A DNA stretch of 64,000 bases from Bacteroidota bacterium (GCA_021794075.1 JAJYRM010000005.1:6620-70619), one strand, 5' to 3'. Shown: positions 1 through 25,010, counted from the first letter of the stretch. Notes: a model not told the origin generated them from the letters alone. Program-made: numbers and translations.

Positions 1-690
1 ATCGCCGATGCCGACATGATGCGGGACGCATTCATAGATTTGCTGAGAAGTAAAGGCTACTCAATACCTGAAATAGCGATCGGAAGCGACGCTATCGCGG
101 CTCTCGAGGGGGCATTCTCCGGCCGTCCTGGCATGATACTCATCTCAGGTACGGGTTCCATTCTTTTCGCCAAAGATCGTTTGGATCGCATCCACCGTGC
201 CGGAGGCTGGGGGCGTGTCATAGGGGATGAAGGAAGCGGATACTCAATCGGACAAGCCTGCCTGTCGGCAATCGCGCGCCAACTTGACGGGAGAGAGAAA
301 GTGACTTCTATGTGGCCTCTGTTTCAAGAGAGGCTAAGAATTCAAAGTTCGCAAGATTTAATAGCCGCTGTTTACCAGAATAAACTCGACATCGCGTCGC
401 TCGCCCTAATCGTAATTGAAGCAGCCGAACGCGGCGACGAAGTGGCTGGAGAAATTCTGTCAAAGGCTTCAATTGATCTATGTGACCTCATCGATGCGGT
501 TCTCAGGCAGTTAGACGTACCGGTTCCGCTTGTGCTATGCGGGAGTTTGCTGGAATCCGATAATTCATTTTCACAAAAACTGAAACTCAGTATCAAAACT
601 AGATTTACACATTTAAAGATACAGGAACCGGATCACTCACCAGCAGTTGGTGCGGCTCTCTTAGCCGTCAAGAAAATAGGACCATCATGA
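1..690 (+). CDS. BadF/BadG/BcrA/BcrD-type ATPase, N-acetylglucosamine-kinase-like (5' end lies outside window)
   Basis: The frame is open from base 1; track ORF 16..690 begins at the first in-window Met. ASKHA-fold sugar-kinase motifs ILISGTGSI and GGWGRVIGDEGSGYSIG are present. The stop overlaps the next start as ATGA (687-690). Confidence 0.75.
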   Translation: MADADMMRDAFIDLLRSKGYSIPEIAIGSDAIAALEGAFSGRPGMILISGTGSILFAKDRLDRIHRAGGWGRVIGDEGSGYSIGQACLSAIARQLDGREKVTSMWPLFQERLRIQSSQDLIAAVYQNKLDIASLALIVIEAAERGDEVAGEILSKASIDLCDLIDAVLRQLDVPVPLVLCGSLLESDNSFSQKLKLSIKTRFTHLKIQEPDHSPAVGAALLAVKKIGPS

Positions 691-3600: not shown

Positions 3601-3704
3601 TGACGAACCGAGTGTGCCCGACGAGAAAGAACGAAGAGATCCAGATAGTCAGACCCACGGTATGCAATGCCGTCATAGAAGCTTTGTCTTCCGACAAAAG
3701 ATGA
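687..3704 (+). CDS. Lipoprotein fusion enzyme: GH3 beta-N-acetylhexosaminidase (NagZ-like) plus serine beta-lactamase-fold hydrolase
   Basis: Lipoprotein-type signal LLASVLLMSCSS. GH3 motifs KHFPGHGDTQVDSH and GLIVTDALTMGG in the N-terminal ~600 aa. The C-terminal ~380 aa has the serine-hydrolase SxxK motif (FDLASLTKVIATT) and a YSD(IN) motif typical of the class C beta-lactamase/AmpH fold. Confidence 0.85.
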   Translation: MKRLLPILLASVLLMSCSSGHYQTKNDGKLPSSSAGSAQQVNSGYILQQPTGTDYKWIADTAWVDSTLSSLSLREEVGQMIVPFTYAKYMSDNSNSYDELAHLVKEFHVGGFVMSIGNVYEEAMLINRLQKISKIPLLFASDFEYGLGMRLRDAVSFPMNMALGATRDTTLAFKIGHAVGDEARAIGVLQVYAPVSDVNDNPSNPIINVRSFGENPQLVGRMASAWATGAQEAGVVATAKHFPGHGDTQVDSHTQLPTINYPYSRLDTLELVPFRDDIAAGIKSVMVAHIAFPLFQHEVGVPATLSRQITTGMLRDSLGFHGLIVTDALTMGGVTKDYSTAEAAIRAVNAGADILLMPPDDRTAVDAIVKAVHAGVIAHATIDRAVKKILTVKSELGLEKRRFVNVDNIDKVIGSMSHELLAQKAARRSITIVRNIGNYLPLQYHQPQQLLCLTVADDGDPSVGQRFRNELAERCDNIAYAQINPTSNQMNFDDVYKEAEQSNIIVIACYVQWGAGQGTVDFTPQIKDFLNKVAALNKPCIMVSFGNPYLLRSVPIVPAYVCAYSSSRYSVNAAVQALFGEINVTGKLPVTIPNAANYGDGVMLPKTSLQYSPPQEAGFNPVRLDRLDSIMNYWVAKGAFPGAQLLVARHGMIAYDKCFGTLDTSLYSRRVTPNTMFDLASLTKVIATTFAAMKLYDEGKLDLDAPVARYIPQFAQNGKSEVTIRNLLVHDSGLPPDPPHFLWETSAIPQSQLERLLKDPHAFVYADSFGSNFHLAHQAMYDSIYAMPLSYKTGTKMVYSDINFIVLGKVIESITGMPLDQYVEQNFYKPLGMTRTMYNPPSNLWKDCAATEYDSVAGYLLQGVVHDENARSLGGVSGHAGLFSTSEDLAVYAQMLLNGGIYDGRRYLKASTISLFTRKQSDLSTRALGWDTKSPEHSTAGRYFSPTSFGHLGFTGTMIWVDPVRKLFVILLTNRVCPTRKNEEIQIVRPTVCNAVIEALSSDKR

Positions 3705-9850: not shown

Positions 9851-10500
9851 TTGTATCTCCAATTTTGCCGAGTAATATAGCAACTGGAGGTAAATCAGTC
9901 AAGACACCGCGAAAATCCCCTGCTATCGAGCCACCCAAGCGCCCCCGCGATAATTTGGCCCATCCAACTCTCTGCCAAATGCTGAACAGATTCAGCAAGA
10001 CACCGACGAGGAAAAGTGAGAGACAGCGACAGATGAAATTGCACACCGCGTCGCTTCTTGAAATTATCAAAGATAAGCAACATCCACCTGCCAGCCAGGA
10101 GCAAGACAATTGGACGGACCGCCATAGAGAAAGAAAAGAGAGATATGCAAAGAAAAAAAAGCACTCGTAACTTCACTCTCGGGTCAAGCCTCTTCTCTTT
10201 CGTCGAATAGAAGCTTGCTCAGTTTGATATGGCTGTATTTGCCTTCAGATACTAACAGGGGCGTAGCTTTCCTCCTCAGCGAGCAAAATATGAATAGCAT
10301 GGCGCCACACGAATCGAAAGATGAGCCTCGAAGATCCTCGAAACCAAACCGAGAAGAACCACACAAAGAATAGAGTGTATCGCGCTTCCCAAGAATTCCG
10401 ACCATTGATAATCCGCAGCTTAAGAATGAAAGGATATACCCAATTTATCGTTTGCCTTACGATGCGAGGCTGATAAATTGTAAAAAAAATAGGAGCAGTG

Positions 10501-11241
10501 ATGCCAAAATGGTCATGGCGAGGAAGAGTACTGAACGGTAAGAAATTAACCTCACACACTGAGGCGGTCCACACACCGGGTGGTAGCATCGTCCGCGAGC
10601 TCGTCTTCGGCGCCAACGACGGCCTTGTAGCGGCGTTCGCTGTGGCCTCAGGTGTCAACGGTGCGGGTGTCCAAAGCAAAGTCATACTCATAGCAGGCCT
10701 GGCAGAGCTTATTGGCGGCACAATCTCAATGGCACTTGGCGCCTACCTTTCGACGAAATCCCAGATAGAATATTACGGCGGAGAGATGAGCCGGGAAGCA
10801 TACGAGGTCGATAATTTCCCAGATATTGAGAGACAGGAGATCCGAGAGATCTATGCGTCTAAAGGCTTCAGCGGAGAGATACTTGACCGGATCATCGCGC
10901 ACATAACTTCGGACAAGAAGCGGTGGATAAACATAATGATGCAGGAAGAACTTGGTTTGTCGCTGGATCAGACAGTTTCCCCTCTCAAGTCGGGGATCGC
11001 CACAGGTGGGGCGTACGCCTTCGGCGCTCTTATGCCCGTTCTCCCCTATTTGCTCATGCAGCCGGGGCCCGGCCTGATAGCAAGCGCCATCCTGACGCTT
11101 TCCGTCCTCTTCGGTGTCGGAGCGGCAAAGACGATCGTCACCGGCAAGAATGCCTGGCGAAGCGGATTCGAAAGCATGGCAATCGGCGGACTTGCCGCCG
11201 CGGCGACTTTCTTCGCGGGCAAACTTTTTTCAAGATTGTAG
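10501..11241 (+). CDS. VIT1/CCC1-family iron/manganese transporter
   Basis: ELVFGANDGLVAAFAVASGV signature plus C-terminal TM helices. AGGAG lies 5 nt upstream of ATG 10501; the track ORF begins one codon earlier at GTG. Confidence 0.85.
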   Translation: MPKWSWRGRVLNGKKLTSHTEAVHTPGGSIVRELVFGANDGLVAAFAVASGVNGAGVQSKVILIAGLAELIGGTISMALGAYLSTKSQIEYYGGEMSREAYEVDNFPDIERQEIREIYASKGFSGEILDRIIAHITSDKKRWINIMMQEELGLSLDQTVSPLKSGIATGGAYAFGALMPVLPYLLMQPGPGLIASAILTLSVLFGVGAAKTIVTGKNAWRSGFESMAIGGLAAAATFFAGKLFSRL

Positions 11242-13036: not shown

Positions 13037-13729
13037 CTACCAGGCCGATACTACTTTTCCGTATAGAACAAGCTTCCCTGTCACGTGCATACTGTTTTCC
13101 AATATGACCCCGTCCGGACCAATCATGGGAGAGTGACAATAGTAGCATGTCTGAAGGGTTATGCCCTTCCCGTTATGCGTCGCATCGTTAGGAGGAAGAC
13201 CGTGACAGCTTCCGCAAGAGTCCTGGCTCGAGTTAACGACGTTCCATGTCGGTGAAGAGTTGTTCCCGCCCTTGAAGTTTCCGTGGCAGTAAGTGTTGGA
13301 ACACTTCAGAGTCTTCGCGTTGAACGAAGGTTGAGGCGTTACCGTGGCGAGGGTGCTGTCATAGAATCGTGTACCCGGTGTATTCGTCTCCGTCATCGCG
13401 ACACCCGAGAAAGTCACGAGAGTCGCGGACGATATGCCGCCCGGATGAATTCCGGGACCAATTGAGGTGGGCACAATGTGACAGGTCGAGCATTCCACCG
13501 TCGAGGCGAACGCGCTCCCGTTTAGATGCACCTGGTGGGCTCCCACGAAAGGAGATGCGGTGCTGGTGTCACCCGCCGCGTCAGGAGGAGGGGCCGGGTT
13601 CATCACGCTTCCGTGGCACGAACTGCAATTCGCCGTCGCAAGGACGCCTGTGTTTTGAAGTTTGCTGCACGATGCCAGCGTCAGTCCTGCAGCAATTATG
13701 AATACTAATCCAAATCGTGTTTTCATCAT
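13037..13729 (-). CDS. Lipoprotein c-type cytochrome (4 CXXCH + 1 CX4CH)
   Basis: I took the start at ATG 13729 (MMKTRFGLVFIIAAGLTLASCS, lipobox LASC). Haem motifs are CSSCH, CSTCH, CSNTYCH, CGSCH and CYYCH. The unit CSNTYCHG...W...CGSCHGLPP resembles the Geobacter CxxxxCH...CXXCH repeat family (TIGR01904, recalled from memory). The start overlaps the upstream stop as TAATG. Confidence 0.85.
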   Translation of the reverse strand: MMKTRFGLVFIIAAGLTLASCSKLQNTGVLATANCSSCHGSVMNPAPPPDAAGDTSTASPFVGAHQVHLNGSAFASTVECSTCHIVPTSIGPGIHPGGISSATLVTFSGVAMTETNTPGTRFYDSTLATVTPQPSFNAKTLKCSNTYCHGNFKGGNNSSPTWNVVNSSQDSCGSCHGLPPNDATHNGKGITLQTCYYCHSPMIGPDGVILENSMHVTGKLVLYGKVVSAW

Positions 13730-14991
13730 TATCTCCCCGGATTGCTCCCATGACAGTAACCGCAAAAGCCGATGCCCGGTTGACCGCCCGGATGGGCGTT
13801 AGGATCGGTATGACACACATAACAAACAGCACCGGGGTCAGTATGCCAGTTCCCATTGACATCATGCATGTACATCGGCGGATGTGTCCTCGGATTGTCA
13901 CCCTGGACTCCATCGGGATCGCTGTGGCATGTAACGCAAACCGGATCGCCACCCTGTATGTCATGACACGCCGCGCAGCTCTCTATATCTCTCCTCGCAT
14001 AGATGGCGTGTCGTCCCCCGCCGGTTCCGACACCATTCGTAACGAAATCGCCGCCGAAGTGCCACACCGGCTCTATCATAGCGCCATTAGCTTCCGAATT
14101 ATGGCATTTCACGCAGAAGTTACGCTCGTCGTGGCATGTATAGCACGTGCTCTCGCGTCCGCTCGCCATTATCCCGTGCGTATAACGGAAATCGGGTGGG
14201 TGAACTTTCTGGGCTGTCGTATTCTTATTGCTGGGCAGCGGAGAAAGAGACGGCGTGAAAGGTACGTATGGCTGACCGGGGGTTAGATCGACAGCAAGGT
14301 TTGCCGCATCGTGGCACTCCTGGCAGCTCGCCTCCGTGTGGCATGACTTGCAGCTATTCTGCGGTCCGGCCATACCCACCAACTGCTGATGGGTCTTGAG
14401 GAAGTTAGGCTGCTGATGTGATTCAGGCACAAGCTTCACCAGATCCTTATGACATTCTTCGCAAGCTCCAGGAGCGGCTGTTATCGGGTGATCCACTTTC
14501 TTAGCGGTGAAATTCGTCTCGCCCTGGCCGTGGCAAGTCATGCACACTTGCATCTTCGGAAGCCCCTTGTTCGGGGCGTTCTCGGCATACGTCACTTTCG
14601 AAATACCTTGATGGCAAGTCTCGCATTTGAGTTTCAGCGAATCTGTGTGCTGGGCATGCGAGAAGCTTACAGGGCTGGGTATCAACGCGAGCTTCCGGTA
14701 AGTCGTCGTGTCCGTCGAAGTATGGCAGAAAGTACATTTCGTCGATGACTGATCATGGCACATGAAACATGTAGACATCGACGGAAGGAGATCTTGTTTA
14801 ATGCTGGCGCTTGTCTTGACATTAGTATGACAATCAGTACACGAAGCGCCAACGTCATTGATATGCTTGCTATGAGAAAACTTTATGAGCGATGAATTGT
14901 CGACCGGCGGAGCCTTCTTGCTCGCAAACAGGGTTGAAATGGACAGAAGCGCTACGATACCGACAATCCCGAAGATTCTAGTCTTTTTCAT
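13729..14991 (-). CDS. Secreted multihaem c-type cytochrome (14 CXXCH)
   Basis: Start at ATG 14991 (MKKTRIFGIVGIVALLSISTLFA), preceded by GGAGG 5 nt upstream. I counted 14 CXXCH motifs and no CXXCK. The track ORF begins 5 codons earlier at TTG. Confidence 0.9.
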   Translation of the reverse strand: MKKTRIFGIVGIVALLSISTLFASKKAPPVDNSSLIKFSHSKHINDVGASCTDCHTNVKTSASIKQDLLPSMSTCFMCHDQSSTKCTFCHTSTDTTTYRKLALIPSPVSFSHAQHTDSLKLKCETCHQGISKVTYAENAPNKGLPKMQVCMTCHGQGETNFTAKKVDHPITAAPGACEECHKDLVKLVPESHQQPNFLKTHQQLVGMAGPQNSCKSCHTEASCQECHDAANLAVDLTPGQPYVPFTPSLSPLPSNKNTTAQKVHPPDFRYTHGIMASGRESTCYTCHDERNFCVKCHNSEANGAMIEPVWHFGGDFVTNGVGTGGGRHAIYARRDIESCAACHDIQGGDPVCVTCHSDPDGVQGDNPRTHPPMYMHDVNGNWHTDPGAVCYVCHTDPNAHPGGQPGIGFCGYCHGSNPGR

Positions 14992-15002
14992 TTGCGCCTC
15001 CG

Positions 15003-16481
15003 TCAATTGCCGCTAAAATTCTTGAAGAAATAGTAATTCACCTGCAGATATCCCCTTAGATCATTTTTGAACACGGGATCTTGATAGTACTGTCCCTGCA
15101 GCGTTATCGCCAGAAGCTTTAACGGACGGTAAGTTACACCGAGCGCTCCGTTATAGAGACGATTTGCCGAAGTAAGCTGTTGAAGGACCTTGTAATCCGT
15201 CGCGGAGGCCGAAGCTATCAAGACGAATCTCTGATTCATGAACGGATATATTACCTGCGCGTTCACGCCGTTCAGATTGCCGGCGAACCCATCGTTATGT
15301 GAGAAACTTAGGGTGAAAAGATATATGTTGGTGCCGACAGTAAATTGATTTGAATTGGCGCCCGTGTAAAAGATTCTGTCATACGAACCGAACGCGCTAA
15401 TATCCTGCGTGAAGAGATAGCTTGCTCCCAGGTCAAGTTCGTCGGTCCCACTGTGATCAAACACAGAAAAAATAGAGTTGTATGGAAGATTTGACGTTCG
15501 ATGATAGTACCCGACATTCGCCGAGAAAGAGGCGAAGGGGGAATATCGGAACGACACTATAGTTCTGTCTATGTCGTAGAGATTCAGGTCATAATCAAGA
15601 CGAAAGTACCCCGATAGGTTGTCGGTAAAGTAAGAAAGATCTCCGGATACGAACCGGTTGGCAATGGCGTCAGGGCTAATGAGAATGCTGTCCTGGGCCC
15701 CAGGGGTGTTGAACGATTCAGACAACCGGTAAGCATAGTAACTTGGCGGCTTGAAGTTTTTGTTAACGTAGGCGCCTCCAATCCGAAAGTTATCGAATGG
15801 AGAATAGTAAGCCTCACCCCCGTAGAGCATGTTATCTTTCAGGTCGGTGTTCAGCTCGATTCTTTCATTCATCGGTGGAAGCGCGCCTCCAAAAGCGAAG
15901 AGAGAGATCTTATCGTCAAAGAGCTTTGCACCGGCGCTTAGTCCGTCAAACGACGACACCCCAACTCTCGAGAAAACCGGCTGCCTGCCGAGTTTCAAGT
16001 CAAAGATTTTTGCAATGTTCCTCGCCTCGAAGTATAGGTTTGCGGCACGAAGGAGCGGGTCGTTCGGCAGTTGAGTCATGAAATCGTTAGTAGCCAGAAG
16101 ATAAGTATGCAGCTGATAATTGCCTGAACCGAAATTCAGCTGCATCGCTTCAAACCCGCGCAGGCTCAACTTGGCATTGTTGGAAGTATCATACTGTTGA
16201 TACGAATAGAACGTAGTCATGAATCTTCCGCTTACCATTTGAGCACGCGCGTTCCTTACGCCGAACGGGTTCGCGAGGATAAGGAAGACTGCGATAAGTA
16301 ATCCCGGAAGTATTGTCGGGAGAAAGAATCGAGCGGGGAGCGCCCTTTCAGGCGGCCCCGCGCTGGGCCAGACTCGTCGTACGGGTCCAGCCTTATCTTT
16401 TCTGTTTCGAAATCTGCAGTTGATATACGGATGCTTCCGTGCGCTGCATCTTTCTGACGCTATTTCCGGGATACCTTTCAC
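15003..16481 (-). CDS. Predicted outer-membrane beta-barrel protein (porin-like) of the cytochrome operon
   Basis: GTG 16481 (preceded by AAGGAAGG) is the only canonical start that retains the hydrophobic signal segment LPGLLIAVFLILA, with predicted cleavage at ARA/Q. The mature protein is ~410 aa of alternating aromatic/aliphatic strand patterns with Gly/Asn/Asp turns, and has an aromatic C-terminus (YLQVNYYFFKNFSGN). It has no haem motif. Confidence 0.7.
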   Translation of the reverse strand: MKGIPEIASERCSARKHPYINCRFRNRKDKAGPVRRVWPSAGPPERALPARFFLPTILPGLLIAVFLILANPFGVRNARAQMVSGRFMTTFYSYQQYDTSNNAKLSLRGFEAMQLNFGSGNYQLHTYLLATNDFMTQLPNDPLLRAANLYFEARNIAKIFDLKLGRQPVFSRVGVSSFDGLSAGAKLFDDKISLFAFGGALPPMNERIELNTDLKDNMLYGGEAYYSPFDNFRIGGAYVNKNFKPPSYYAYRLSESFNTPGAQDSILISPDAIANRFVSGDLSYFTDNLSGYFRLDYDLNLYDIDRTIVSFRYSPFASFSANVGYYHRTSNLPYNSIFSVFDHSGTDELDLGASYLFTQDISAFGSYDRIFYTGANSNQFTVGTNIYLFTLSFSHNDGFAGNLNGVNAQVIYPFMNQRFVLIASASATDYKVLQQLTSANRLYNGALGVTYRPLKLLAITLQGQYYQDPVFKNDLRGYLQVNYYFFKNFSGN

Positions 16482-16536
16482 AACCCACCTTCCTTTATGA
16501 ACAAAAAAATGAACGAACCCGACGACTGCGCGAGCC

Positions 16537-17088
16537 TTACTGCTGAGGAACTGGGTGAGCTATCTTAGCCCACATAGTTTTGAAGTCGAATCCCTTGAAG
16601 GTCGGGCTCTTCTTGTTATGGCAGGTTTCGCAGAATTTCTCCGCGCTGCCGTCTTTAACCGAGAGGAGCGTAAGACCGTGGGCGACAGCTTCTTTCTCGT
16701 TCTTCATAATGTCCATCTTCATATAGTCCTTGCCGGGGCCGTGGCACGTTTCGCACTGCACGCCGTCTTCTTTGCTGAATCTCGGACCGAGCTGAGAAGC
16801 GGGAGCGTTGTACGCTGTTTCATGGCACTGCACGCACTCAGGTGCATCGGCAGGGCTACCCTTTATTCCTCTCGCTTCGGCGATCTTCTTAGCTTCCGGG
16901 GTCAAGAGGGTTTTATAAGCCTGAGAGTGCTTGCTCGCTTCCCATTTCTGGAATTGCTCGCCACTCTTCGGGGTTCTGTGGCACATGGCGCATACCTTCA
17001 CTCCGACGTACTGGTGGCTGGGTTCAGCGGCCAGCGAAACGGCAGAGGTCAGGGCAAGCGCCATAACCACTAGTGTTAGTGTTTTCAT
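16537..17088 (-). CDS. Secreted tetrahaem c-type cytochrome (cytochrome c554-like family)
   Basis: Start at ATG 17088 (MKTLTLVVMALALTSAVSLAA), preceded by GGAGG. Haem motifs are CAMCH, CVQCH and CETCH x2. The N-terminal pattern CAMCH...W..SKHSQAY is typical of the c554-type multihaem family (PF13435, recalled). Confidence 0.85.
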   Translation of the reverse strand: MKTLTLVVMALALTSAVSLAAEPSHQYVGVKVCAMCHRTPKSGEQFQKWEASKHSQAYKTLLTPEAKKIAEARGIKGSPADAPECVQCHETAYNAPASQLGPRFSKEDGVQCETCHGPGKDYMKMDIMKNEKEAVAHGLTLLSVKDGSAEKFCETCHNKKSPTFKGFDFKTMWAKIAHPVPQQ

Positions 17089-17109
17089 TTGGATACCTCC
17101 ATTTTGATT

Positions 17110-17121
17110 TGGTATATACCA
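17110..17121. promoter_or_regulatory. Perfect 12-bp palindrome TGGTATATACCA in the largest intergenic gap of the cytochrome operon
   Basis: It lies 22 nt upstream of the tetrahaem cytochrome ATG, within the 96-nt gap 17089-17184. Its function is unknown; it could be an operator or an internal promoter element. Confidence 0.3.
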
Positions 17122-17184
17122 GGTAACGTTACAGACGAGACGACCTGAACCGGCCGCTCGCACTTGCATCTTCCTAATATCAAC

Positions 17185-17523
17185 TCAGTTTTTCTTTCCG
17201 CACGCATCGCAATATGTTCTTGTCAAGGCTTTTTCTAACTCCTTCTTGCCGATGAAGGCGGAGCACCGTTCGCAATAACCATAGGTCCCGCTTTTCAACC
17301 TTTGAAGGGCCAACTCAAGCTCCTTGAATTCCGTTTCCATCTTCCTGGCGAGCTCACATCTGTAATCGGGCTCAACTTCGCATCTCTTGTGCTGAATGTC
17401 GCAAACGCTGCATATGTACGCTTCCCCGCTTTCCAAATCGACAAGGTCATCGGGTTTCATATACATCATTTGGAGAACCACGCTAATCCTGTTCCTGATC
17501 AAATTGTTAAAGTGCTCCGTCAT
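17185..17523 (-). CDS. DksA/TraR-family C4 zinc-finger protein (paralogue A)
   Basis: The C-terminal YGYCERCSAFIGKKELEKALTRTYCDAC is CxxC-x17-CxxC, the DksA/TraR spacing. I took the start at ATG 17523 (MTEHFNNL), 8 nt after the upstream stop. The track ORF extends 16 codons further and would overlap the cytochrome gene. Confidence 0.75.
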   Translation of the reverse strand: MTEHFNNLIRNRISVVLQMMYMKPDDLVDLESGEAYICSVCDIQHKRCEVEPDYRCELARKMETEFKELELALQRLKSGTYGYCERCSAFIGKKELEKALTRTYCDACGKKN

Positions 17524-17530
17524 CTGTCGA

Positions 17531-20239
17531 TCAGCTCTCCCTGTCTTTATCTTTGTCTTTCTCATCGTCATCGCTCCCTTTGGGATTTTCTCCGTTCTCT
17601 ACAACGATGTCTCCTGCCTTTTCTTCTTCGCTTAGTATCCTGTCTAATTCCACCGGATGCTCTTCTTCCATCTCCTCTTCGGTGATCGTTCCGAACAGCC
17701 AGGAAAGGTTCATTGGATAGACATCAGGGTTAAAGATTGAGAAGTACATATGCCACACGAGAATCGCGAGGGTCGCTAGAATCGCTTCATAATAATGCAC
17801 GAGTGTCGCTACATCGATCCCGAGAAGAGTGAATCTCCCTACAGTGAAGGTATTGAACCAGAGAAGAAGTCCGGTAAGGACCATCACGGTTGTCCCCCAG
17901 ATGAGCGCCCAGTATTCCGCTTTCTCGATGTAGCTGAACCTATCGAATCGCGGTCGCTTATCGGAAATTCCGAGGTAATACTTCACCGCGTCCCTGACGT
18001 CGGCCGCGTCTTTCAAATTCGGGAGCATGTCTTTGATAAACTGCCTCCCGCGTTGAGTGAAGATTACATAGTACACGTGGTATAACGCCGTCACAATCAT
18101 GATGACTGCGCTGATGCGGTGGATCAGACCACGCAACTCAAACACTCTCTCGCCTCCGCCTCCGATTTCACGGATTAGTCTCACCCACCATGAATCCGGG
18201 AATTTCAACATAAACCCCGTGAAGACAAGAAGAGTGAAGCTCACGAGCAGCCCCCAATGCTGCAGACGTTCGGCCTTGGTCATCCTCACATAGAGTTTCT
18301 TTCCAACATGCTTAAGTTCGGCGGACGGATCTCTTCTGAGTTTCAGTTTCGCCTTCGACTTCTTCACGAAATCGAATACGTTGTGTATCAGCATCATACC
18401 GATAACGCCGAAGATGAGCACCGCGTAGATCTGTGAAATCCAGAAGAGCAGCGGCTGATTGGTCGGCGTGGGAGCGATGTGTACAGGGAACGAAGCAAAT
18501 TTAGCATCGGCTCCAGGATGACACTTACCACATGTCTTGGCAATATTCGCTTTGTTAATTGGAGAATTAGGATCGGACGAAGGTAGTATTTCATGAGCGC
18601 CGTGGCAGCTCGCGCAATTGGCAACGGTCGTCATTCCCCCCTGTTTCGCAAGTCCGTGATAGCTGTCGAGATAACTTCCCACTGCGTGAGCGGGAAGGCC
18701 GTATCTGCTGGTGAGCCTGACTGAACCGTGGCAATGCGAACATGTCTGGACGATGTTGTTCTTGGAAACCGTCGATTGAGGATTGTTCGGAGCAAGTATC
18801 TGATGGTCGCCGTGGCAACTGGTGCACACGGGAGCGCTGTTGTTGCCGTTTTCCATGGCCTTGCCGTGAATCCCGGCCATGTAACGCTTCTCGATCCCAG
18901 AGTGACACCCGCTTTGACCGCAAGTAGCAGGGATATTATTCCTGAATATTCTGGATTTCGGATTTCCCGCGGGAAGCATACTGTGGGCGCCGTGACAATC
19001 GCTGCACGTGGCAGCCTTTAGATTTCCCTTTTCGAGCGCGACGAGATGGACGCTATATTTAATGCTCTCAAGGAACGGACGCGACACACCCACCATCTTA
19101 AAGACAGTCTTGTTATCCAAATGGCAACGCAGACATGTCTTGGGCTCATTCTGCCTGCTCACCGGCGATTCGGGATTGCTGACGGAAACAACGTTGTGAT
19201 CGTTATGACAATCCGTGCAAACCGGAGCAACCGCGAGCCTTTCCTTGTAAGCTTTTCCATGGGAAGACTCCAGGTAGTCAGCCGCTTGCTTCTGGTGACA
19301 TTTGGCACAAGTCGATACAATATTCAACCTGTTGACTGGCGAAGCTGTGTCGCTGGCCGCAAGCATGGAGTGCGAACCATGACAGTCCACACAGGTCGCC
19401 CCCTTGCCGGTTTTCCTGAGCGACTCAACATGAATGCTGTGTTCGTAGGAGTCGACAAATGACGTCATAGGCTTGCCGTTGGCCGCCTTCATCCCCTGGA
19501 AGAGCTTCGGATTAGAGTGACACTTGTAGCAAGCTTCCGAAACATTCTTCTTGGATACATGGGGATCGTGAGCGCTATGGCATGAAACACAAGTCACCGT
19601 GCCTTCGTCAAAAGCCTTCTTATGCACGCTATGGTTAAGATCAGAGGCAACACCTTTGTGGCACTGCATGCAAAGCGAGTCGATCTTCACTCCCTGCAAC
19701 GAAGCGACAGTCTTCACGTCATGAGCCTTGCCATGGCACGTCACGCACGTGAACGGCTCCTTGCCGACGGTTGCCTTCGCATGCGCCGACTGGAGAAACA
19801 CCTTCTTTGAAGCGTGACACGATATACACTTTGCGTCTACTACGATTTTGCTGGCAGGCTTGATATCATGCGTGCCGTGACAGCTCCAGCATTTCACCGA
19901 AGAATGCGCCAAATGGTAATTCGCGCCCTTGGGCGCTAGAAGATTGACGCTGTGACACTGGTCGCAGTCAACGTTTGGAGAGGTCTGTTTGTGAGGCACA
20001 TCATCGGCGCTGAATCCTTGATGACAGTCCGTGCAAGCGACCCCCGCGTCTCCGTGTACCGAGGAACTGAAGATGGCAGGATTGACGTACAGACTGATTG
20101 TCTTCCCATCCTTCTGCATTGTCAAAGTGGAATCGGAGTGACACGCAAGGCAATCGTCGTTTGAGCTGGCAAAAATAGGTCGTGCGAAAAGCGAATTTAA
20201 AAGAATAATGGTAAGTAATGAGAGTAATCTAATTTTCAT
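17531..20239 (-). CDS. Multihaem c-type cytochrome (18 CXXCH + 1 CX4CH) fused to an FdnI/HydC-type cytochrome b membrane domain (CbcL-like quinol oxidoreductase candidate)
   Basis: Signal peptide MKIRLLSLLTIILLNSLFARPIFA. I counted 19 haem motifs, including five tandem paired-CXXCH modules. The C-terminal ~300 aa has 5 hydrophobic helices with ERLQHWGLLVSFTLLVFTG, LIHRISAV..LYHVYY and LVHYYEAI..VWHMY, the His pattern of PF01292-type dihaem b. Confidence 0.85.
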   Translation of the reverse strand: MKIRLLSLLTIILLNSLFARPIFASSNDDCLACHSDSTLTMQKDGKTISLYVNPAIFSSSVHGDAGVACTDCHQGFSADDVPHKQTSPNVDCDQCHSVNLLAPKGANYHLAHSSVKCWSCHGTHDIKPASKIVVDAKCISCHASKKVFLQSAHAKATVGKEPFTCVTCHGKAHDVKTVASLQGVKIDSLCMQCHKGVASDLNHSVHKKAFDEGTVTCVSCHSAHDPHVSKKNVSEACYKCHSNPKLFQGMKAANGKPMTSFVDSYEHSIHVESLRKTGKGATCVDCHGSHSMLAASDTASPVNRLNIVSTCAKCHQKQAADYLESSHGKAYKERLAVAPVCTDCHNDHNVVSVSNPESPVSRQNEPKTCLRCHLDNKTVFKMVGVSRPFLESIKYSVHLVALEKGNLKAATCSDCHGAHSMLPAGNPKSRIFRNNIPATCGQSGCHSGIEKRYMAGIHGKAMENGNNSAPVCTSCHGDHQILAPNNPQSTVSKNNIVQTCSHCHGSVRLTSRYGLPAHAVGSYLDSYHGLAKQGGMTTVANCASCHGAHEILPSSDPNSPINKANIAKTCGKCHPGADAKFASFPVHIAPTPTNQPLLFWISQIYAVLIFGVIGMMLIHNVFDFVKKSKAKLKLRRDPSAELKHVGKKLYVRMTKAERLQHWGLLVSFTLLVFTGFMLKFPDSWWVRLIREIGGGGERVFELRGLIHRISAVIMIVTALYHVYYVIFTQRGRQFIKDMLPNLKDAADVRDAVKYYLGISDKRPRFDRFSYIEKAEYWALIWGTTVMVLTGLLLWFNTFTVGRFTLLGIDVATLVHYYEAILATLAILVWHMYFSIFNPDVYPMNLSWLFGTITEEEMEEEHPVELDRILSEEEKAGDIVVENGENPKGSDDDEKDKDKDRES

Positions 20240-20595
20240 CTGGCGGTGTCACTCTTTTCGTGTATCGCGGTCTGACATGACGGACATAATCTAGCCGTGA
20301 GATTTGATTCTAGAACTTCGGAGGGGATCTCATGCCTGCATATAACACATTGCCCGTAGATACCTTTCTCTATTCGCCGAAGAGCAAAGGCGATCTCGTT
20401 TAGCTCAGGGCAGTCAAACCTCGCTGCTTCCTGGAGAACGAGTTCCTTTCCCCCATCGACAGAGACTCCATGCTTTGCCAAGAGAATGTCGCGAAGCTTC
20501 TGAACCACAAGCTTTTCGTATTTGGAAAGTTCTTCTGATTTCATTTTAGAATGTCTGTGTTCAAGCTGTGTGCCGATTGCTTCAAAAAGAGGCAT
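20236..20595 (-). CDS. DksA/TraR-family C4 zinc-finger protein (paralogue B)
   Basis: YGQCVICRHEIPSEVLESNLTARLCPSC is CxxC-x17-CxxC. The stop overlaps the start of the 902-aa cytochrome as ATGA (20236-20239). The start is ATG 20595; the track ORF begins one codon earlier at TTG. Confidence 0.75.
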   Translation of the reverse strand: MPLFEAIGTQLEHRHSKMKSEELSKYEKLVVQKLRDILLAKHGVSVDGGKELVLQEAARFDCPELNEIAFALRRIEKGIYGQCVICRHEIPSEVLESNLTARLCPSCQTAIHEKSDTAR

Positions 20596-20600
20596 CAAAG

Positions 20601-20619: not shown

Positions 20620-20952
20620 ATTGGCCCAATTCAACAATCGAGGAAGTCAGGCTTCAAAATTCTGTGGTTTTATGGCCCATCGTGAGCAAAGTTTCCACAC
20701 CCGTAAAAAGGAGGCTGCCGCCAGGCAACTTTTGAAATCGTCTGGCAGCAGCAGGAGGAGGAAAGAGGAGATCTTTCTCTTGAAACAAAGAAAATTTTTG
20801 GGCTGCCGAGATATGGCAGTGCCTTCCCCTGAGCGAGTAGCATTTAAATAAATCAGCAGCCCAAAACCATTTTGCTCTATAGCAAGCTCGCAGTAACCAC
20901 GTTGCAACTACCGCATGAGCAACGTCGGCACGCTGGGAAGAATAAAACCTAT

Positions 20953-21351
20953 TCAGGCAGGTTGGTCTTCCAACCCATTATCCATGGGCTGAATGGACCG
21001 ACGAGTCTTCTCAAGCGTCTGCTTTATAGTGTTGCTCAATTGCCTGAGGTTCAGCGGGCGATCCTTCACCAGAACAGCCTCAGTTTCCACATCCGCATAA
21101 TCCTCATCGCAACACTGCACAATAAGCACAGCAGGTTTTGTCCTTTTCAAATTGTCAAACCATTTTCTCGACCGACTCGGATTTCTTGTCGGTGCAAGTA
21201 TAATGAGAGCAAGGTCGCCTGAATCGGAACTGTCAGATAAAACTCGTCTCGTCTCATAACCTTCTTTGTCGAGGAATTTGTCAAGCAACTCGTACATAGC
21301 CTCTTCATCCGTGACTATTCCGACAGGTACCTTTTGTTCTTCTTTTCTCAT
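20953..21351 (-). CDS. Stand-alone receiver-like (pseudo-receiver) protein
   Basis: Receiver-fold pattern is present (VGIVTDEE / DLALIILAP / PAVLIVQCC / VLVKDRP). The position of the phospho-acceptor Asp reads IILAP, with no Asp. The family assignment is by eye only. Confidence 0.45.
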   Translation of the reverse strand: MRKEEQKVPVGIVTDEEAMYELLDKFLDKEGYETRRVLSDSSDSGDLALIILAPTRNPSRSRKWFDNLKRTKPAVLIVQCCDEDYADVETEAVLVKDRPLNLRQLSNTIKQTLEKTRRSIQPMDNGLEDQPA

Positions 21352-21365
21352 TATGCATACTATTA

Positions 21366-21381
21366 GTCAATCATCGTGCCG
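21366..21381 (-). promoter_or_regulatory. Sigma54-like -24/-12 element CGGCACG-ATGA-TTGAC (imperfect)
   Basis: The minus strand reads CGGCACGATGATTGAC. The GG-N10 spacing is correct, but the -12 dinucleotide is GA rather than GC and a C replaces the T 5' of the GG. It ends 14 nt before ATG 21351, which would give a near-leaderless mRNA. Confidence 0.3.
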
Positions 21382-21831: not shown

Positions 21832-23700
21832 ATGTTCAGCACACTTAGAGCAAAGGTAGCGGCGGGCTTTACAGTCCTCGTGATAATAAACGTCATCGTG
21901 AGCGTATGGTCGATCTACAATTTCGACCAGCTTACGCAGGCGATCACAAAGATGATCAAACAGAACTACCAGAACGTCATAGCGACCCAGAACATGCTTA
22001 TGGACCTCGAACGCGACAATAGCGCGCAGCTCGTGATGCTAAACGGTTACGTCGATCTAGGATACAAACAGTTCCAGGATAACCACAGCGACTTCTTCAT
22101 TTGGTACCAGCAGGCTGTGAACTCGAACGTGTCCCAGCGGGGCATGCAGATCTTAAATAATATTAAGAAAAACTACGCCGAGTTCGCCGCTGCCACCGAT
22201 TCATTGCGTGATGTCCTGATGACCCACGGCCAGGTGTATGCGCAGGATTTCCACTATCGGAACGTTCTACCTCTCTCAAACCAGATCAAGGACGGCTGCT
22301 TCCAACTCCTGGACATGAATCACAACGCGATGGTGGCCACGGACACGAAAGCGAGCGACATTTCCAACCAAGCCACCGTAGCAGTACTCGGGGCGGCTCT
22401 CCTGGCTATTGTCCTGAGCATCGTCGCAAGCTGGCAATTTTCACAATATATTCTGGAGCCCGCCGAGAAACTCACCGATACCGTTAGAAAACTCGGAAGG
22501 GGTTACCTCGACGTGCGGGCCACCATCAACTCCAACGACGAGATCGGAGAACTCGCCCGCGAATTCAATCGTATGGCGGAACGTCTTAAGAAATACGACG
22601 AGCTAAATATCGAGAAGCTCATTTCCGAAAAGCGGAAATCCGAAGCTATCGTCGGGACAATTTCAGATCCAATTGTGGTTGCGGACCGTGACGGCAAGAT
22701 CGTATTGATGAACCAACTTGCCGAAAACATTTTCGACGTGTCAGAGGAGGCTTCAATTGGAGAGCAGTTCCAGAGTGTCATCAAGAACACCGACCTCAAC
22801 AAGTACGTAAAGCGTTACCTTGACGGCGAAAACTCAGTGAACATCCCACCTTATTTCCAGCTCCGCTTCAACGGCGAAGACAGGTACTTCAGGATAAAAT
22901 TGAATTCGTCAACGGACGCGGCGGGCAAGGTCGCCGGCGTCATACTCATTCTCCAGGATGTGACCCAGTTCAAAGAACTTGACAAGATGAAATCGGATTT
23001 CATGGCGAGAGTCTCGCATGAATTCAGGACCCCGCTTACTTCGATTAACATGACGCTCGATATTTTGAAAGACGCACACATAGGTCATGTCAACAAAAGG
23101 CAACACGAACTCCTCGTTGCCGCAAAGCAAGACGCTGAGAGATTGACTAAGCTCGTTCGGGAATTACTGGAGCTTTCCCGCCTCGAGTCAGGAAAGATCC
23201 AGCTCAAGGAAGACAAGATAGACACAAAGTCGCTGATCGATTTTTCAGTTCAGCCTGTACTCCTCCAATTCACCGATAAGAGCGTGCAACTCGTAGTAAA
23301 CGCGGACGACACGATCCCGGAATTTGTCGCCGATTTTCAGCAGCTCTCTTGGGTGGTTTCAAACCTTGTGACAAACGCGCTCAGGTTCACGGACCCCGGC
23401 GGCAGTGTCACCGTTGATGCCACGAGCGACGGAGAAGATCTCATCGTTGCCGTCAGAGACACAGGTTGCGGCATAGAACCTGCCGAGATGGAAAAAGTAT
23501 TCGACAAATTCGTACAGGTCCAGGACTCCTCCAACCCTTCGCCCGGCTCGGTCGGCCTCGGTCTTTCGATAGCTAAGGAGATTGTCGAGCTTTATGGCGG
23601 TAGAATATGGGTCGACAGCAGGGTTGGCTCCGGAAGCGTGTTCACGTTCTCCATTCCCATCAAAAAGCGTATGTATCACGAAAGAGCAATTTCCGCATGA
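21832..23700 (+). CDS. Sensor histidine kinase (TM, four-helix-bundle-type periplasmic sensor, TM, HAMP, PAS, HisKA, HATPase)
   Basis: HAMP NDEIGELAREFNRMAERL, PAS segment ISDPIVVADRDGKIVLMNQLAENIF, H-box VSHEFRTPLTSI, G-box GSVGLGLSIAKEIV. Confidence 0.9.
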   Translation: MFSTLRAKVAAGFTVLVIINVIVSVWSIYNFDQLTQAITKMIKQNYQNVIATQNMLMDLERDNSAQLVMLNGYVDLGYKQFQDNHSDFFIWYQQAVNSNVSQRGMQILNNIKKNYAEFAAATDSLRDVLMTHGQVYAQDFHYRNVLPLSNQIKDGCFQLLDMNHNAMVATDTKASDISNQATVAVLGAALLAIVLSIVASWQFSQYILEPAEKLTDTVRKLGRGYLDVRATINSNDEIGELAREFNRMAERLKKYDELNIEKLISEKRKSEAIVGTISDPIVVADRDGKIVLMNQLAENIFDVSEEASIGEQFQSVIKNTDLNKYVKRYLDGENSVNIPPYFQLRFNGEDRYFRIKLNSSTDAAGKVAGVILILQDVTQFKELDKMKSDFMARVSHEFRTPLTSINMTLDILKDAHIGHVNKRQHELLVAAKQDAERLTKLVRELLELSRLESGKIQLKEDKIDTKSLIDFSVQPVLLQFTDKSVQLVVNADDTIPEFVADFQQLSWVVSNLVTNALRFTDPGGSVTVDATSDGEDLIVAVRDTGCGIEPAEMEKVFDKFVQVQDSSNPSPGSVGLGLSIAKEIVELYGGRIWVDSRVGSGSVFTFSIPIKKRMYHERAISA

Positions 23701-25010
23701 AAGCCAACGTCCTTCTCGTAGATGACGAGCAAAATATACTTCGTACCGTAACAATCTGTCTCGAGTCCATCGGGCTCGAGGTGACCGCAACTCCAAAACC
23801 TGAGGAAGCGTTAAAGCTCGCCTCCGAGAGACATTTCGATATTGCTTTCTTCGACCTTAAGATGTATCCGGTGGACGGCCTTGAACTCCTCGCCCACATG
23901 AAGAGGTATTCGCCCGATACGATAGTTGTCATCGTGACTGCTCACGGATCTGTGGATACTGCCGTGCAGGCTATCAAACAGGGCGCGTATGACTATCTTC
24001 AGAAGCCTTTCGATTTTCAGGAACTCCAGCACTTCGCCCAGAAAGTGTATGACCATTTCCTTCTTCAGAAGCAGCTGAAAGACCTGAAAGAGGAGCTTCA
24101 TAAATACCAGGCGGCAGAAGAGATAATAACCGCGGACCCTCAGGTGCTTTCCCTTCTCAATCTCGCGAGAGAGGTGGCCGATACCAACATCAGCGTGTTG
24201 ATTGAAGGAGAGAGCGGAACGGGAAAAGAACTACTCGCGAAGTACATTCACAAGTCGAGCGCTCGTGCAGACGCACCATTTGTTACCGTCAACTGTGCCG
24301 CTCTCTCCGAAAGCCTTCTCGAGAGCGAACTATTCGGCCACGTCAAGGGCTCTTTTACAGGCGCGGTCAGAGACAGACAAGGGAGGTTTGAGATGGCCGA
24401 TACTGGGACGGTTTTCCTCGACGAGATAACCGAGATCCCGACCACGACGCAGGCCAAGCTGCTTCGCTTCCTGCAAGGGCGGGAATTCGAGCGCGTCGGC
24501 GACTCTCAGACCATGAAGGTCGATGTCAGATTCATTGCGGCGACAAACCGCGATCTAAAAGCTTCCCTCTCATCCGGAACGTTCAGGGATGACCTGTATT
24601 ACAGAATAAACGGCGTGACCATAAAACTCCCTCCCCTTAGAGAACGCCCGGACGACATTCCACTTCTCATCAAGCACTTCATACAAAAGTTCGGCGGGGA
24701 GAATCCTCCTGAGATTGGGCCCGACGCCTTCGGAATACTGGCCAATTACCGTTGGCCTGGTAATATCCGGCAGTTGGAGAATGTGATAGAGCGTTCGGTT
24801 CTTCTGGCTCACGGAAAGAAAATAGAGGTACACCATCTTCCGGAAGAGATCCGGCAGCTTGAGGGTAAGCGCCTCGTTTCGCTCGAAGAGCTGGAGAAGG
24901 AACATATCTCAAGGGTAATTCAGCAAACCGCTACTGTCGATGAGGCCTCGCACGTGCTCGGGATAGACCCGGCGACTCTCTGGCGAAAACGGAAGAAGTA
25001 CGGGCTTTAA
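23697..25010 (+). CDS. Sigma54-dependent response regulator (NtrC family: REC + AAA+ + Fis HTH)
   Basis: Start ATG 23697 (MKANVLLVDDEQN) is in an ATGA overlap with the kinase stop. Motifs are Walker A GESGTGKE, GAFTGA variant KGSFTGAV, and C-terminal HTH ASHVLGIDPATLWRKRKKYGL. Confidence 0.9.
   Translation: MKANVLLVDDEQNILRTVTICLESIGLEVTATPKPEEALKLASERHFDIAFFDLKMYPVDGLELLAHMKRYSPDTIVVIVTAHGSVDTAVQAIKQGAYDYLQKPFDFQELQHFAQKVYDHFLLQKQLKDLKEELHKYQAAEEIITADPQVLSLLNLAREVADTNISVLIEGESGTGKELLAKYIHKSSARADAPFVTVNCAALSESLLESELFGHVKGSFTGAVRDRQGRFEMADTGTVFLDEITEIPTTTQAKLLRFLQGREFERVGDSQTMKVDVRFIAATNRDLKASLSSGTFRDDLYYRINGVTIKLPPLRERPDDIPLLIKHFIQKFGGENPPEIGPDAFGILANYRWPGNIRQLENVIERSVLLAHGKKIEVHHLPEEIRQLEGKRLVSLEELEKEHISRVIQQTATVDEASHVLGIDPATLWRKRKKYGL

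Follow-up and report, generated by a model that had tools for sequence, protein, structure and literature searches.

The closest described counterpart of the locus analysed here is the porin-cytochrome (Pcc) gene cluster of Ignavibacterium album, which includes a porin-like protein (IALB_1839), a periplasmic cytochrome of 400 aa with 14 haems (IALB_1838), an outer-membrane cytochrome with an atypical haem motif (IALB_1837) and an associated periplasmic cytochrome (IALB_1840) (Shi, Fredrickson & Zachara 2014, PMC4245776). Shi et al. placed IALB_1839 and IALB_1838 far from all five Pcc phylogenetic groups (PMC4245776), and Pcc clusters in Ignavibacteria and Melioribacter (OmbB-like PCCs) have been noted repeatedly (PMC7399161, PMC6137239). 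We analysed a stretch of 64,000 nucleotides from a Bacteroidota bacterium (GCA_021794075.1, JAJYRM010000005.1:6620-70619), referred to as the window. It contains seven genes, named g1 to g7 in order of transcription, which encode a predicted Pcc conduit of the Ignavibacteria type together with a quinol oxidase of the known CbcL type. The core of this cluster is not new. New in the Kryptoniota, the lineage of the closest relatives, are an arrangement of eight genes (counting a probable further member upstream of g1), a pair of DksA-fold paralogues, promoters of the sigma54 type and an unclassified structured RNA.

In Geobacter, conduits combine a conserved periplasmic component with a fast-changing surface lipoprotein (Jimenez Otero et al., PMC6148476). 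On the inner-membrane side, proteins of the CbcL/MtrH/MtoC family have 416-1034 aa, with 3-23 CXXCH motifs in the N-terminal part and 4-6 C-terminal helices; homologues occur in 15 phyla including Bacteroidetes and Ignavibacteriae, and those reported by Zhong & Shi (2018) share at least 28.6% identity with G. sulfurreducens CbcL (PMC6295460). CbcL-like genes lie inside the pcc clusters of Desulfurobacterium and Thermovibrio (Dester_0351/Theam_0871), and genes for MtrH and MtoC in mtr clusters (PMC4245776). The initial annotation of the window had taken the presence of a quinol oxidase and a conduit in one operon as a novelty, which these published clusters, and the Melioribacteraceae loci described below, contradict.

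Layout and conservation of the cluster

The seven co-directional minus-strand genes that had been listed at 13037-20598 were all recovered as open reading frames (ORFs). Gene starts were refined by comparison with homologues and by an independent gene call, resulting in the following features:

20236-20544, minus strand: g1, DksA/TraR-like zinc-finger protein, 102 aa with its probable start at the ATG at 20544 (NCBIfam DksA_like, PDB 2kq9)
17531-20239, minus strand: g2, inner-membrane protein of the CbcL/MtrH/MtoC type, 902 aa (haem motifs, PF01292, TIGR01583, FdnI ligands)
17185-17571, minus strand: g3, second DksA-fold protein, heading g3-g7, conserved part from 17523 (AlphaFold2 and Foldseek, invariant cysteines)
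16537-17088, minus strand: g4, secreted tetrahaem c554-like cytochrome, 183 aa, candidate periplasmic shuttle, counterpart of IALB_1840 (PF13435, E 7e-19)
15003-16481, minus strand: g5, predicted beta-barrel of the outer membrane, about 22 strands, member of an FCB-wide uncurated family, counterpart of IALB_1839 (AlphaFold2 and Foldseek)
13729-14991, minus strand: g6, secreted 14-haem cytochrome, 420 aa, candidate haem wire in the barrel, counterpart of IALB_1838 (14 CXXCH)
13037-13729, minus strand: g7, lipoprotein cytochrome, 230 aa, candidate surface terminal reductase, counterpart of IALB_1837 (lipobox LTLAS-C, TIGR01904)

The raw ORFs of g4, g6 and g7 comprise 210, 425 and 242 aa, respectively. 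The g1 ORF itself reaches 20598; the short start was preferred because the longer ORF would enclose a conserved promoter motif. Both gene overlaps reported initially are present, an ATGA at 20236-20239 that joins the stop of g1 to the start of g2 and a TAATG at 13727-13731 that results from the refined start of g7. Intergenic distances of -4 to +96 nt also hold with the refined starts, with the exception of g3, which would overlap the end of g2 by 41 nt if its first ATG is used. The motif count gave the expected 42 haem motifs: 19 in g2 (18 CXXCH and one CX4CH), 4 CXXCH in g4, 14 CXXCH in g6 and 5 in g7 (four CXXCH and one CX4CH). CXXCK was not found in any of the cluster cytochromes. Within the window, ORFs with two or more CXXCH are confined to g2, g4, g6 and g7.

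The GC content is even across the cluster, and the flanks consist of housekeeping genes, namely rpsB, tsf and upp, which are syntenic across the lineage, as well as genes for a HAD hydrolase and a VIT1 transporter. A genomic island was rejected on these grounds, and the cluster is therefore assigned to the core genome.

A profile scan of one genome per species detected the barrel in at least 300 genomes, and 80 loci were kept for synteny analysis (individual comparison loci are labelled with L-numbers). The closest g5 homologues, with 55-88% identity, came from Kryptonia/Kryptoniota metagenome-assembled genomes (MAGs), which confirms the earlier guess of an FCB/Ignavibacteria-like host; a large set with 31-38% identity came from Ignavibacteria. 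The order g4-g5-g6-g7 was kept in nearly all of the 80 species-level genomes, with proteins that are 31-88% identical. Counted over the loci with room for the gene in question, 73 of 76 have g4 immediately upstream of the barrel, 74 of 76 have g6 immediately downstream and 72 of 72 have g7 downstream. In relatives, the barrel is obligately linked to the cytochromes, and the co-inheritance of g4-g7 is strict. Exactly 14 CXXCH were present in 73 of 74 g6 orthologues, and the haem number of g7 orthologues varied from 2 to 15. Among 1.84 billion representatives, a search with a profile hidden Markov model (HMM) identified 510 members of the barrel family, 325 of them at E<=1e-10 and 143 at E<=1e-30. 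Distant members originate from Zixibacteria, Marinimicrobia and Bacteroidota and are annotated as hypothetical proteins only.

Two loci from I. album MAGs (L049 and L062) encode four orthologues of g4-g7 in the same order with 31-44% identity. In L049 these proteins measure 178, 424, 400 and 423 aa, with 4, 14 and 9 haems in the first, third and fourth, respectively, and they are 34-43% identical to those of the window. The published I. album cluster was equated with these loci by organism name, gene order and the description of a 400-aa protein with 14 haems, not by accession; when the proteins of the I. album MAGs were looked up as exact sequences in clusters, the entries read 'hypothetical protein' only and carried no IALB tags. 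A tetrahaem cytochrome, a porin-like barrel, a 14-haem cytochrome of about 400 aa and an outer-membrane cytochrome whose CX(n)CH motif is atypical follow each other in the same order, so that g4-g5-g6-g7 match IALB_1840/1839/1838/1837 (Shi et al. 2014, PMC4245776). The proposal of the initial annotation that the window holds an undescribed system does not stand; the gene order of the four-gene core has already been named, though never characterized. The I. album system is predicted only, and in the literature the name IALB_1838 was found in Shi et al. 2014 only. A multi-omics paper on M. roseus (PMC5492636) contains nothing on multihaem cytochromes, porins or iron reduction, and our literature search returned no paper that ties Kryptonia to multihaem cytochromes.

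The cluster of the window differs from the I. album system by further genes in the same unit (the 19-haem CbcL-type gene, the DksA-fold pair and a gene of 132 aa) as well as by sigma54-type promoters and a structured RNA. These elements were not found within 10 kb of the core in most Ignavibacteriota loci. In addition, g7 of the window is shorter, with 5 motifs compared with 9 in L049.

Predicted outer-membrane conduit and inner-membrane cytochrome

Three features by which Pcc clusters are recognized (Shi 2014; Jimenez Otero 2018) are present: a barrel gene, an adjacent secreted multihaem cytochrome and a redox lipoprotein. The sorting signals agree with the initial annotation, with N-terminal hydrophobic signal segments on g2, g4, g5 and g6 and a lipobox on g7.

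No family in Pfam or NCBIfam matched g5, and at E<=0.1 in Pfam just one spurious match was obtained. In an AlphaFold2 model built on 23 homologues, about 22 long antiparallel strands at residues 82-488 come after a signal-peptide helix (pLDDT 74.6, pTM 0.62). In a Foldseek search against the PDB, 324 matches were found at E<=1e-3 and the top 50 were all outer-membrane barrels; the best ones were the 24-strand usher pores FimD/PapC, with TM-scores of merely 0.3-0.5. The all-beta model and the nature of its top matches support the view that this 492-aa protein is an outer-membrane barrel, as had been suspected from its sequence. Its ORF begins at a GTG with a good Shine-Dalgarno sequence, and about 50 poorly conserved residues precede the signal-peptide core (16330-16481, minus strand). 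In relatives, the N-terminus ranges from a canonical 20-residue signal peptide (L019) to extensions about as long as that of g5, and the first ~10 codons (MKGIPEIASE) are kept among the closest relatives.

The 14-haem protein g6 has a signal segment and no lipobox, and in its N-terminal part it is similar to ActA, the pentahaem subunit of alternative complex III. It scored 14.5 bits against TIGR03508 (decahaem DmsE/MtrA, cutoff 192) and 34.6 bits against TIGR03507 (decahaem OmcA/MtrC, cutoff 209); g7, with 12.7 bits, was far under the cutoffs of both models. On the other hand, g7 reached 54.4 bits with TIGR01904, the Geobacter CxxxxCH/CxxCH domain, for which the cutoff is 27. None of the cluster cytochromes reached the thresholds of the catalytic multihaem families NrfA, HAO, OTR and MccA in Pfam and NCBIfam. 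The electron-transfer models NrfB and NrfH gave weak scores under cutoff. Together with the lack of CXXCK, these results bear out the earlier statement that the cluster holds no orthologue of a catalytic multihaem enzyme.

The proposed conduit shares its working principle with Shewanella MtrCAB, namely a haem wire in a large barrel that is capped by a surface lipoprotein cytochrome. It differs from MtrCAB in the number of strands (about 22, not 26), in the low scores of g6 and g7 and in g5, for which no match to PF11854 (MtrB/PioB) was obtained, in line with the initial impression that the barrel is not MtrB. The conduit is no member of the MtrCAB family. With the Geobacter systems OmaB/OmbB/OmcB and ExtABCD/ExtEFG it has in common a pentahaem lipoprotein like ExtC/ExtF, the TIGR01904 domain of g7 and a surface component that is the most variable part. 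It differs from them by 14 haems compared with 8-12, by about 22 strands compared with 18-21 predicted, and in that no membership of g5 or g6 in a Geobacter family was detected at the sequence level.

For the 902-aa protein g2, the Sec-type signal segment, the 19 haem motifs and the C-terminal cytochrome b bundle that had been described were all confirmed. A signal peptide is followed by a haem-rich domain of about 560 residues, a transmembrane helix at 595-626, a Lys/Arg-rich loop, a four-helix cytochrome b domain and an acidic cytoplasmic tail. The haem motifs span residues 30-575, and five transmembrane segments lie past the haem domain. The C-terminal part matched PF01292 (cytochrome b; E 1.9e-16, 60.8 bits, cutoff 30.1) and TIGR01583, the gamma subunit of formate dehydrogenase (FdnI-gamma; E 2e-15). 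The haem-b ligands H18/H57/H155/H169 of E. coli FdnI (1kqf_C) align with H661/H707/H815/H830 of g2, and all four are thus kept. The N-terminal haem chain showed weak sequence similarity to NrfB and to 6r2q_A (E 1.2e-6). In the PDB sequence table, the chain of the latter entry, the MtrCAB complex of Shewanella baltica, bears the label 'Cystathionine beta-synthase', which looks wrong for a multihaem match.

By architecture, size, haem count and b-haem ligands, g2 fits the CbcL/MtrH/MtoC family as a predicted quinol oxidase. CbcL-type inner-membrane quinol oxidases were reportedly addressed by Zacharoff et al. in 2016. Like members of this family, g2 combines an N-terminal periplasmic multihaem c domain with a C-terminal HydC/FdnI-like dihaem b domain, and its 902 aa and 19 haems lie inside the published ranges of 416-1034 aa and 3-23 motifs. 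Among the NCBIfam matches of g2 there was no CbcL-specific model. Differences are the 19 haems, twice the 9 of G. sulfurreducens CbcL, the acidic cytoplasmic tail and the translational coupling to a DksA-like gene. The tail (17531-17686, minus strand) contains 22 Asp/Glu among the last 52 residues.

Combinations of the conduit with g2-like genes were also found outside the Kryptoniota. Seven Ignavibacteriota loci have a g2-like gene immediately upstream, which is either a single fused gene (807-875 aa, 16-18 haems) or divided into cytochrome c and cytochrome b genes, and some Melioribacteraceae loci carry a quinol-oxidase-like gene in the conduit cluster. Four loci (L004, L008, L009 and L012) have additional cytochrome b and c genes between g2 and g3 (L004, 4314-8874). 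The cluster is therefore regarded as two modules, g1-g2 and g3-g4-g5-g6-g7, each led by one DksA paralogue. The modules inserted in some Kryptoniota consist of a 233-aa cytochrome b, a 9-haem cytochrome, a cytochrome b of about 298 aa and an 18-haem NapC/NirT-like cytochrome, or of a split 19-haem c and b pair; in L007 (2140-5100) an extra cytochrome module lies upstream of g1. The inserted modules suggest that several alternative quinol oxidases feed one outer-membrane conduit, as is the case for ImcH, CbcL and others in Geobacter.

Proposed electron path, acceptor and direction

We propose that the cluster encodes a Pcc-type extracellular electron transfer (EET) pathway with its own quinol oxidase and assign this reading a probability of about 0.78. 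The functional logic put forward in the initial annotation, with one redox component for each envelope layer in the manner of Mtr and Pcc systems and a CbcL-type quinol oxidase, fits every test that was run. In the proposed pathway, g2 in the inner membrane would oxidize menaquinol at its FdnI-like dihaem cytochrome b domain, and the electrons would enter its own 19-haem periplasmic chain. The soluble tetrahaem cytochrome g4, or direct contact, would ferry them over the periplasm. The 14-haem protein g6, held inside the ~22-strand barrel g5, would wire them through the outer membrane, and g7 on the outer face would reduce an extracellular acceptor; candidates are minerals of Fe(III)/Mn(IV), humics, electrodes and partner cells. 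How the complex assembles, which way electrons flow and what accepts them are proposed by analogy with MtrCAB and the Geobacter Pcc systems.

Several observations weigh against this proposal. For I. album, the host of the closest described cluster, no reduction of Fe(III) or Mn(IV) oxides is known (PMC4245776), and in the literature we found no experiment on this type of conduit for any organism. The g5 model is of medium confidence and its PDB matches are generic. By eye, g7 has no obvious acidic surface-export signal past the lipid-modified cysteine, and its surface exposure is assumed for that reason. The kinship of g2 to Geobacter CbcL was judged from the published description, not by direct alignment. 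Finally, the -12 element of the sigma54-type promoter motifs described below reads TTGA, whereas TTGC is canonical.

Regarding the acceptor, Shi et al. (2014) argue for a non-metal substrate of the I. album and D. alkaliphilus clusters, whose hosts reduce no solid Fe(III)/Mn(IV) (PMC4245776), and in Geobacter the ExtI cluster serves selenite and tellurite reduction (PMC6148476). It is possible, if rather unlikely, that the cluster of the window is likewise a trans-outer-membrane reductase for elemental sulfur/polysulfide, selenite/tellurite, humic substances or dimethyl sulfoxide, which would leave the mechanism as proposed and alter the substrate alone. However, no non-haem catalytic subunit (molybdopterin, rhodanese or Fe-S) is present in or beside the cluster, and its last component, like that of conduits for metal reduction, is a plain multihaem lipoprotein.

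Regarding the direction, the sequence holds nothing that fixes it, and CbcL/MtrH/MtoC homologues, found in Fe(III) reducers and Fe(II) oxidizers, have been proposed to run either way (PMC6295460). The same hardware might carry electrons inward and supply the quinone pool from Fe(II), from a cathode or from a syntrophic partner, a mode that has been proposed for MtoAB/MtoC and PioAB. We consider this a live but improbable alternative: no pcc cluster had been found in a known Fe(II) oxidizer (PMC4245776), and the core cluster is carried by, among others, the Fe(III) reducer M. roseus and anode-enriched bacteria (PMC7399161). Furthermore, a surface lipoprotein cytochrome is present, whereas Fortney et al. 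call clusters without one 'mto-like' (PMC6137239). Very improbable is a combination of an ordinary porin with cytochromes for periplasmic electron storage or a periplasmic reductase chain, which the generic structural matches of g5 would allow, but which is at odds with the same cytochrome genes flanking the barrel in nearly every one of the 80 genomes at 31-88% protein identity, with the absence of g5 from the general porin families of Pfam and NCBIfam, with a 22-strand barrel that far exceeds the size of a diffusion porin and with a lipoprotein cytochrome, which makes little sense in a purely periplasmic chain.

With the present cluster, the range of this predicted conduit type grows beyond Ignavibacteria to include Kryptoniota. 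Should the conduit work, respiration of minerals, humics or partner cells could be open to many uncultured FCB-group bacteria that live in sediments, soils and hot springs, and HMM surveys built on Geobacter and Shewanella porins may undercount such bacteria. In the Kryptoniota layout, the predicted quinol oxidase, shuttle, barrel, wire and surface reductase are placed under one promoter set, which makes the cluster a compact candidate for heterologous reconstitution of a complete pathway.

Putative control region, DksA-fold proteins and neighbouring genes

The region upstream of g1 contains the following features:

23697-25010, plus strand: sigma54-dependent response regulator, 437 aa, with REC, AAA+ and Fis-type helix-turn-helix domains (PF00158 E 3.3e-70, PF00072, PF02954)
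21832-23700, plus strand: sensor histidine kinase, HAMP-PAS-HisKA-HATPase (Pfam)
21367-21380, minus strand: sigma54-type -24/-12 motif GGCACGATGATTGA before the 132-aa gene, about 16 nt from its ATG (conserved in relatives)
20953-21351, minus strand: 132-aa gene, family not assigned (synteny)
20790-20870, minus strand: structured RNA of 81 nt, a 13-bp closing stem around a nearly invariant loop (covariation, covariance model)
20703-20765, minus strand: CU-rich tract UCUCCUCUUUCCUCCUCC, then a 13-bp hairpin and U run, intrinsic terminator or attenuator (covariation, terminator-like site)
20561-20574, minus strand: second sigma54-type motif GGCACACAGCTTGA before g1, about 16 nt from the ATG at 20544 (conserved in relatives)

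Wherever a Kryptoniota locus extends over this region, the unit begins with the 132-aa gene (29-86% identity), which is therefore probably the eighth member of the cluster. Its product had no match in Pfam even at E<=10; a receiver domain, suggested by resemblance by eye, was dropped as unsupported.

In the window and in 17 of 17 relatives, the motif GGCAC-N5-TTGA lies 28-30 nt ahead of the start codon (ATG) of the 132-aa gene; a copy about 26 nt before the ATG of g1 was found in the window and in 12 of the 17 relatives, compared with a background of 0.013 per region. This TTGA-type motif emerged from comparative alignment only. With the canonical consensus TGGCAC-N5-TTGCW and up to two mismatches, hits across the window were no more frequent than expected by chance. 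The second motif falls inside the longer g1 ORF of the initial annotation and the gene caller, and the 5' leaders implied by both motifs are about 6 nt long. The sigma54 activator gene is conserved divergently beside the cluster in Kryptoniota loci (70-93% identity), and the synteny of the kinase gene is kept as well. In six Melioribacteraceae loci (L039, L043, L046, L050, L061 and L068; at about 13450-13550), a homologue that is 41-48% identical to the activator of the window directly follows g7. These data suggest that the response regulator is likely the activator of the cluster promoters and the histidine kinase its likely partner; together they would drive the two sigma54-type promoters before the 132-aa gene and before g1. 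A conserved block, GGTGTGGAAACTTTGCTCACGATGGGCCATAAAACCACAG (20660-20700, minus strand), is located about 90-130 nt upstream of the g1 promoter motif and contains a TGTGG...CCACA inverted repeat. It is a candidate enhancer site for the sigma54 activator. The block is absent from L014 and L018, both of which are also without the second promoter motif.

The structured RNA and the terminator are situated between the 132-aa gene and g1. The 81-nt element is almost invariant in loci in which the proteins are merely 50-86% identical. By RNAalifold and pair counts, 97.6% of cells were paired. Eight pairs showed compensatory changes on both sides, compared with 2.0 ± 0.9 in shuffled alignments (0 of 500 reached this number) and three or fewer in controls with slid partners. 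In the terminator hairpin, 6 of 13 pairs were changed on both sides with pairing kept. The support by covariation thus applies to the outer stem and the terminator; an inner helix (alignment columns 29-36/43-51) showed no covariation, is broken in L019 and is not claimed. The z-score of the fold was -4.2. With the covariance model, the operon strand scored 100-110 bits and its complement 30-39 bits; together with conserved G·U pairs, this assigns the RNA to the operon strand. Rfam yielded nothing meaningful for the leader region, with a single match to a long non-coding RNA at E 0.93. One copy of the RNA was present in the window and in each of 18 Kryptoniota loci, and all 8 exact-core matches in Joint Genome Institute (JGI) metagenomes share the context. 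The covariance model detected no copy in Ignavibacteriota loci and none elsewhere in the window.

Two deviating arrangements bear on the role of this element. In L014 and L018, g1 begins about 45 nt past the terminator and the second promoter motif is missing, and in L007 and L085 the RNA element directly precedes a cytochrome gene. Both favour a cis-acting attenuator of read-through into the cytochrome genes as the putative function of RNA and terminator. Alternatively, the RNA may be a 3'-untranslated-region element or a small RNA. By eye, the loop GGGGAAGG could pair with CUUUCCUC of the CU tract, which would provide an anti-terminator or anti-Shine-Dalgarno logic.

Both genes that had been described as DksA/TraR-like zinc fingers were verified by C4 zinc ribbons in g1 and g3, whose CxxC...CxxC pattern aligns with DksA 2kq9 and 1tjl. 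The two genes are paralogues. Each of the 20 Kryptoniota loci with coverage of this region has both of them, and the 59 Ignavibacteriota loci have neither. For g1, the NCBIfam model DksA_like gave E 1.9e-9, under its cutoff, and PDB DksA 2kq9 gave E 6e-4. Scores of g1 and g3 with curated DksA/TraR models were low (NF033459 36-38 bits, cutoff 105; PF01258 14 bits, cutoff 24.9). The AlphaFold2 model of g3 (pLDDT 71) consists of a helical hairpin and a zinc ribbon, and in Foldseek its top 8 PDB matches were DksA2/DksA/Dks with TM-scores up to 0.74 (0.72-0.74 for DksA2 4ijj). Besides the ribbon cysteines C84/C87/C105/C108, g3 has four extra invariant cysteines, C38/C41/C48/C56, in a low-confidence loop at the hairpin tip. 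The g3 family comprises 48 clusters, all at least 63% identical and all from the Kryptoniota lineage.

The tip of DksA carries a DxxDxA motif, whose acidic residues reach the active site of RNA polymerase. With E. coli DksA and P. aeruginosa DksA2, g1 and g3 share the C4 zinc ribbon, and g3 also the helical-hairpin fold. In the proteins of the window, however, the hairpin is short, an invariant Cys4 loop takes the place of DxxDxA at the tip of g3, and both genes are embedded in a cytochrome operon. Our literature search found no paper with DksA in an EET operon. In the Melioribacteraceae locus L040 (5297-5722), a regulator of the Rrf2 family (Fe-S type) lies directly upstream of the g2-like gene, at a place equivalent to that of g1, which is consistent with a regulatory role for g1 and g3. 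The two DksA-fold proteins would probably modulate RNA polymerase, and the structured RNA with its terminator between the promoters would act as an attenuator or small RNA. For these elements, as for kinase and activator, the regulatory roles are inferred. A more specific model, with regulators of a novel type, is speculative: the RNA, with its CU-rich tract and terminator, might be a riboswitch-like attenuator or small RNA that gates read-through from the 132-aa gene to the cytochrome genes on a redox- or iron-related signal, and the DksA-fold paralogues might be metal- or redox-sensing factors of the RNA-polymerase secondary channel for an extracellular-respiration operon, one of them with a Cys4 metal site at its tip. 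The RNA element and the Cys4-tipped DksA-like proteins represent the most original lead of this analysis; DksA-fold genes and conserved RNA offer cheap leads on the control of extracellular respiration outside Proteobacteria and Desulfuromonadota.

Two neighbouring genes were additionally recorded. A gene of the VIT1 family (Fe2+/Mn2+ transporter; 10498-11241, plus strand) is located three genes downstream of the cluster, a position kept throughout the Kryptoniota loci; this may be chance synteny or a link to iron handling. At 687-3704 (plus strand), a 1005-aa ORF, unrelated to the cluster, encodes glycoside hydrolase family 3 domains fused to a beta-lactamase-family domain.

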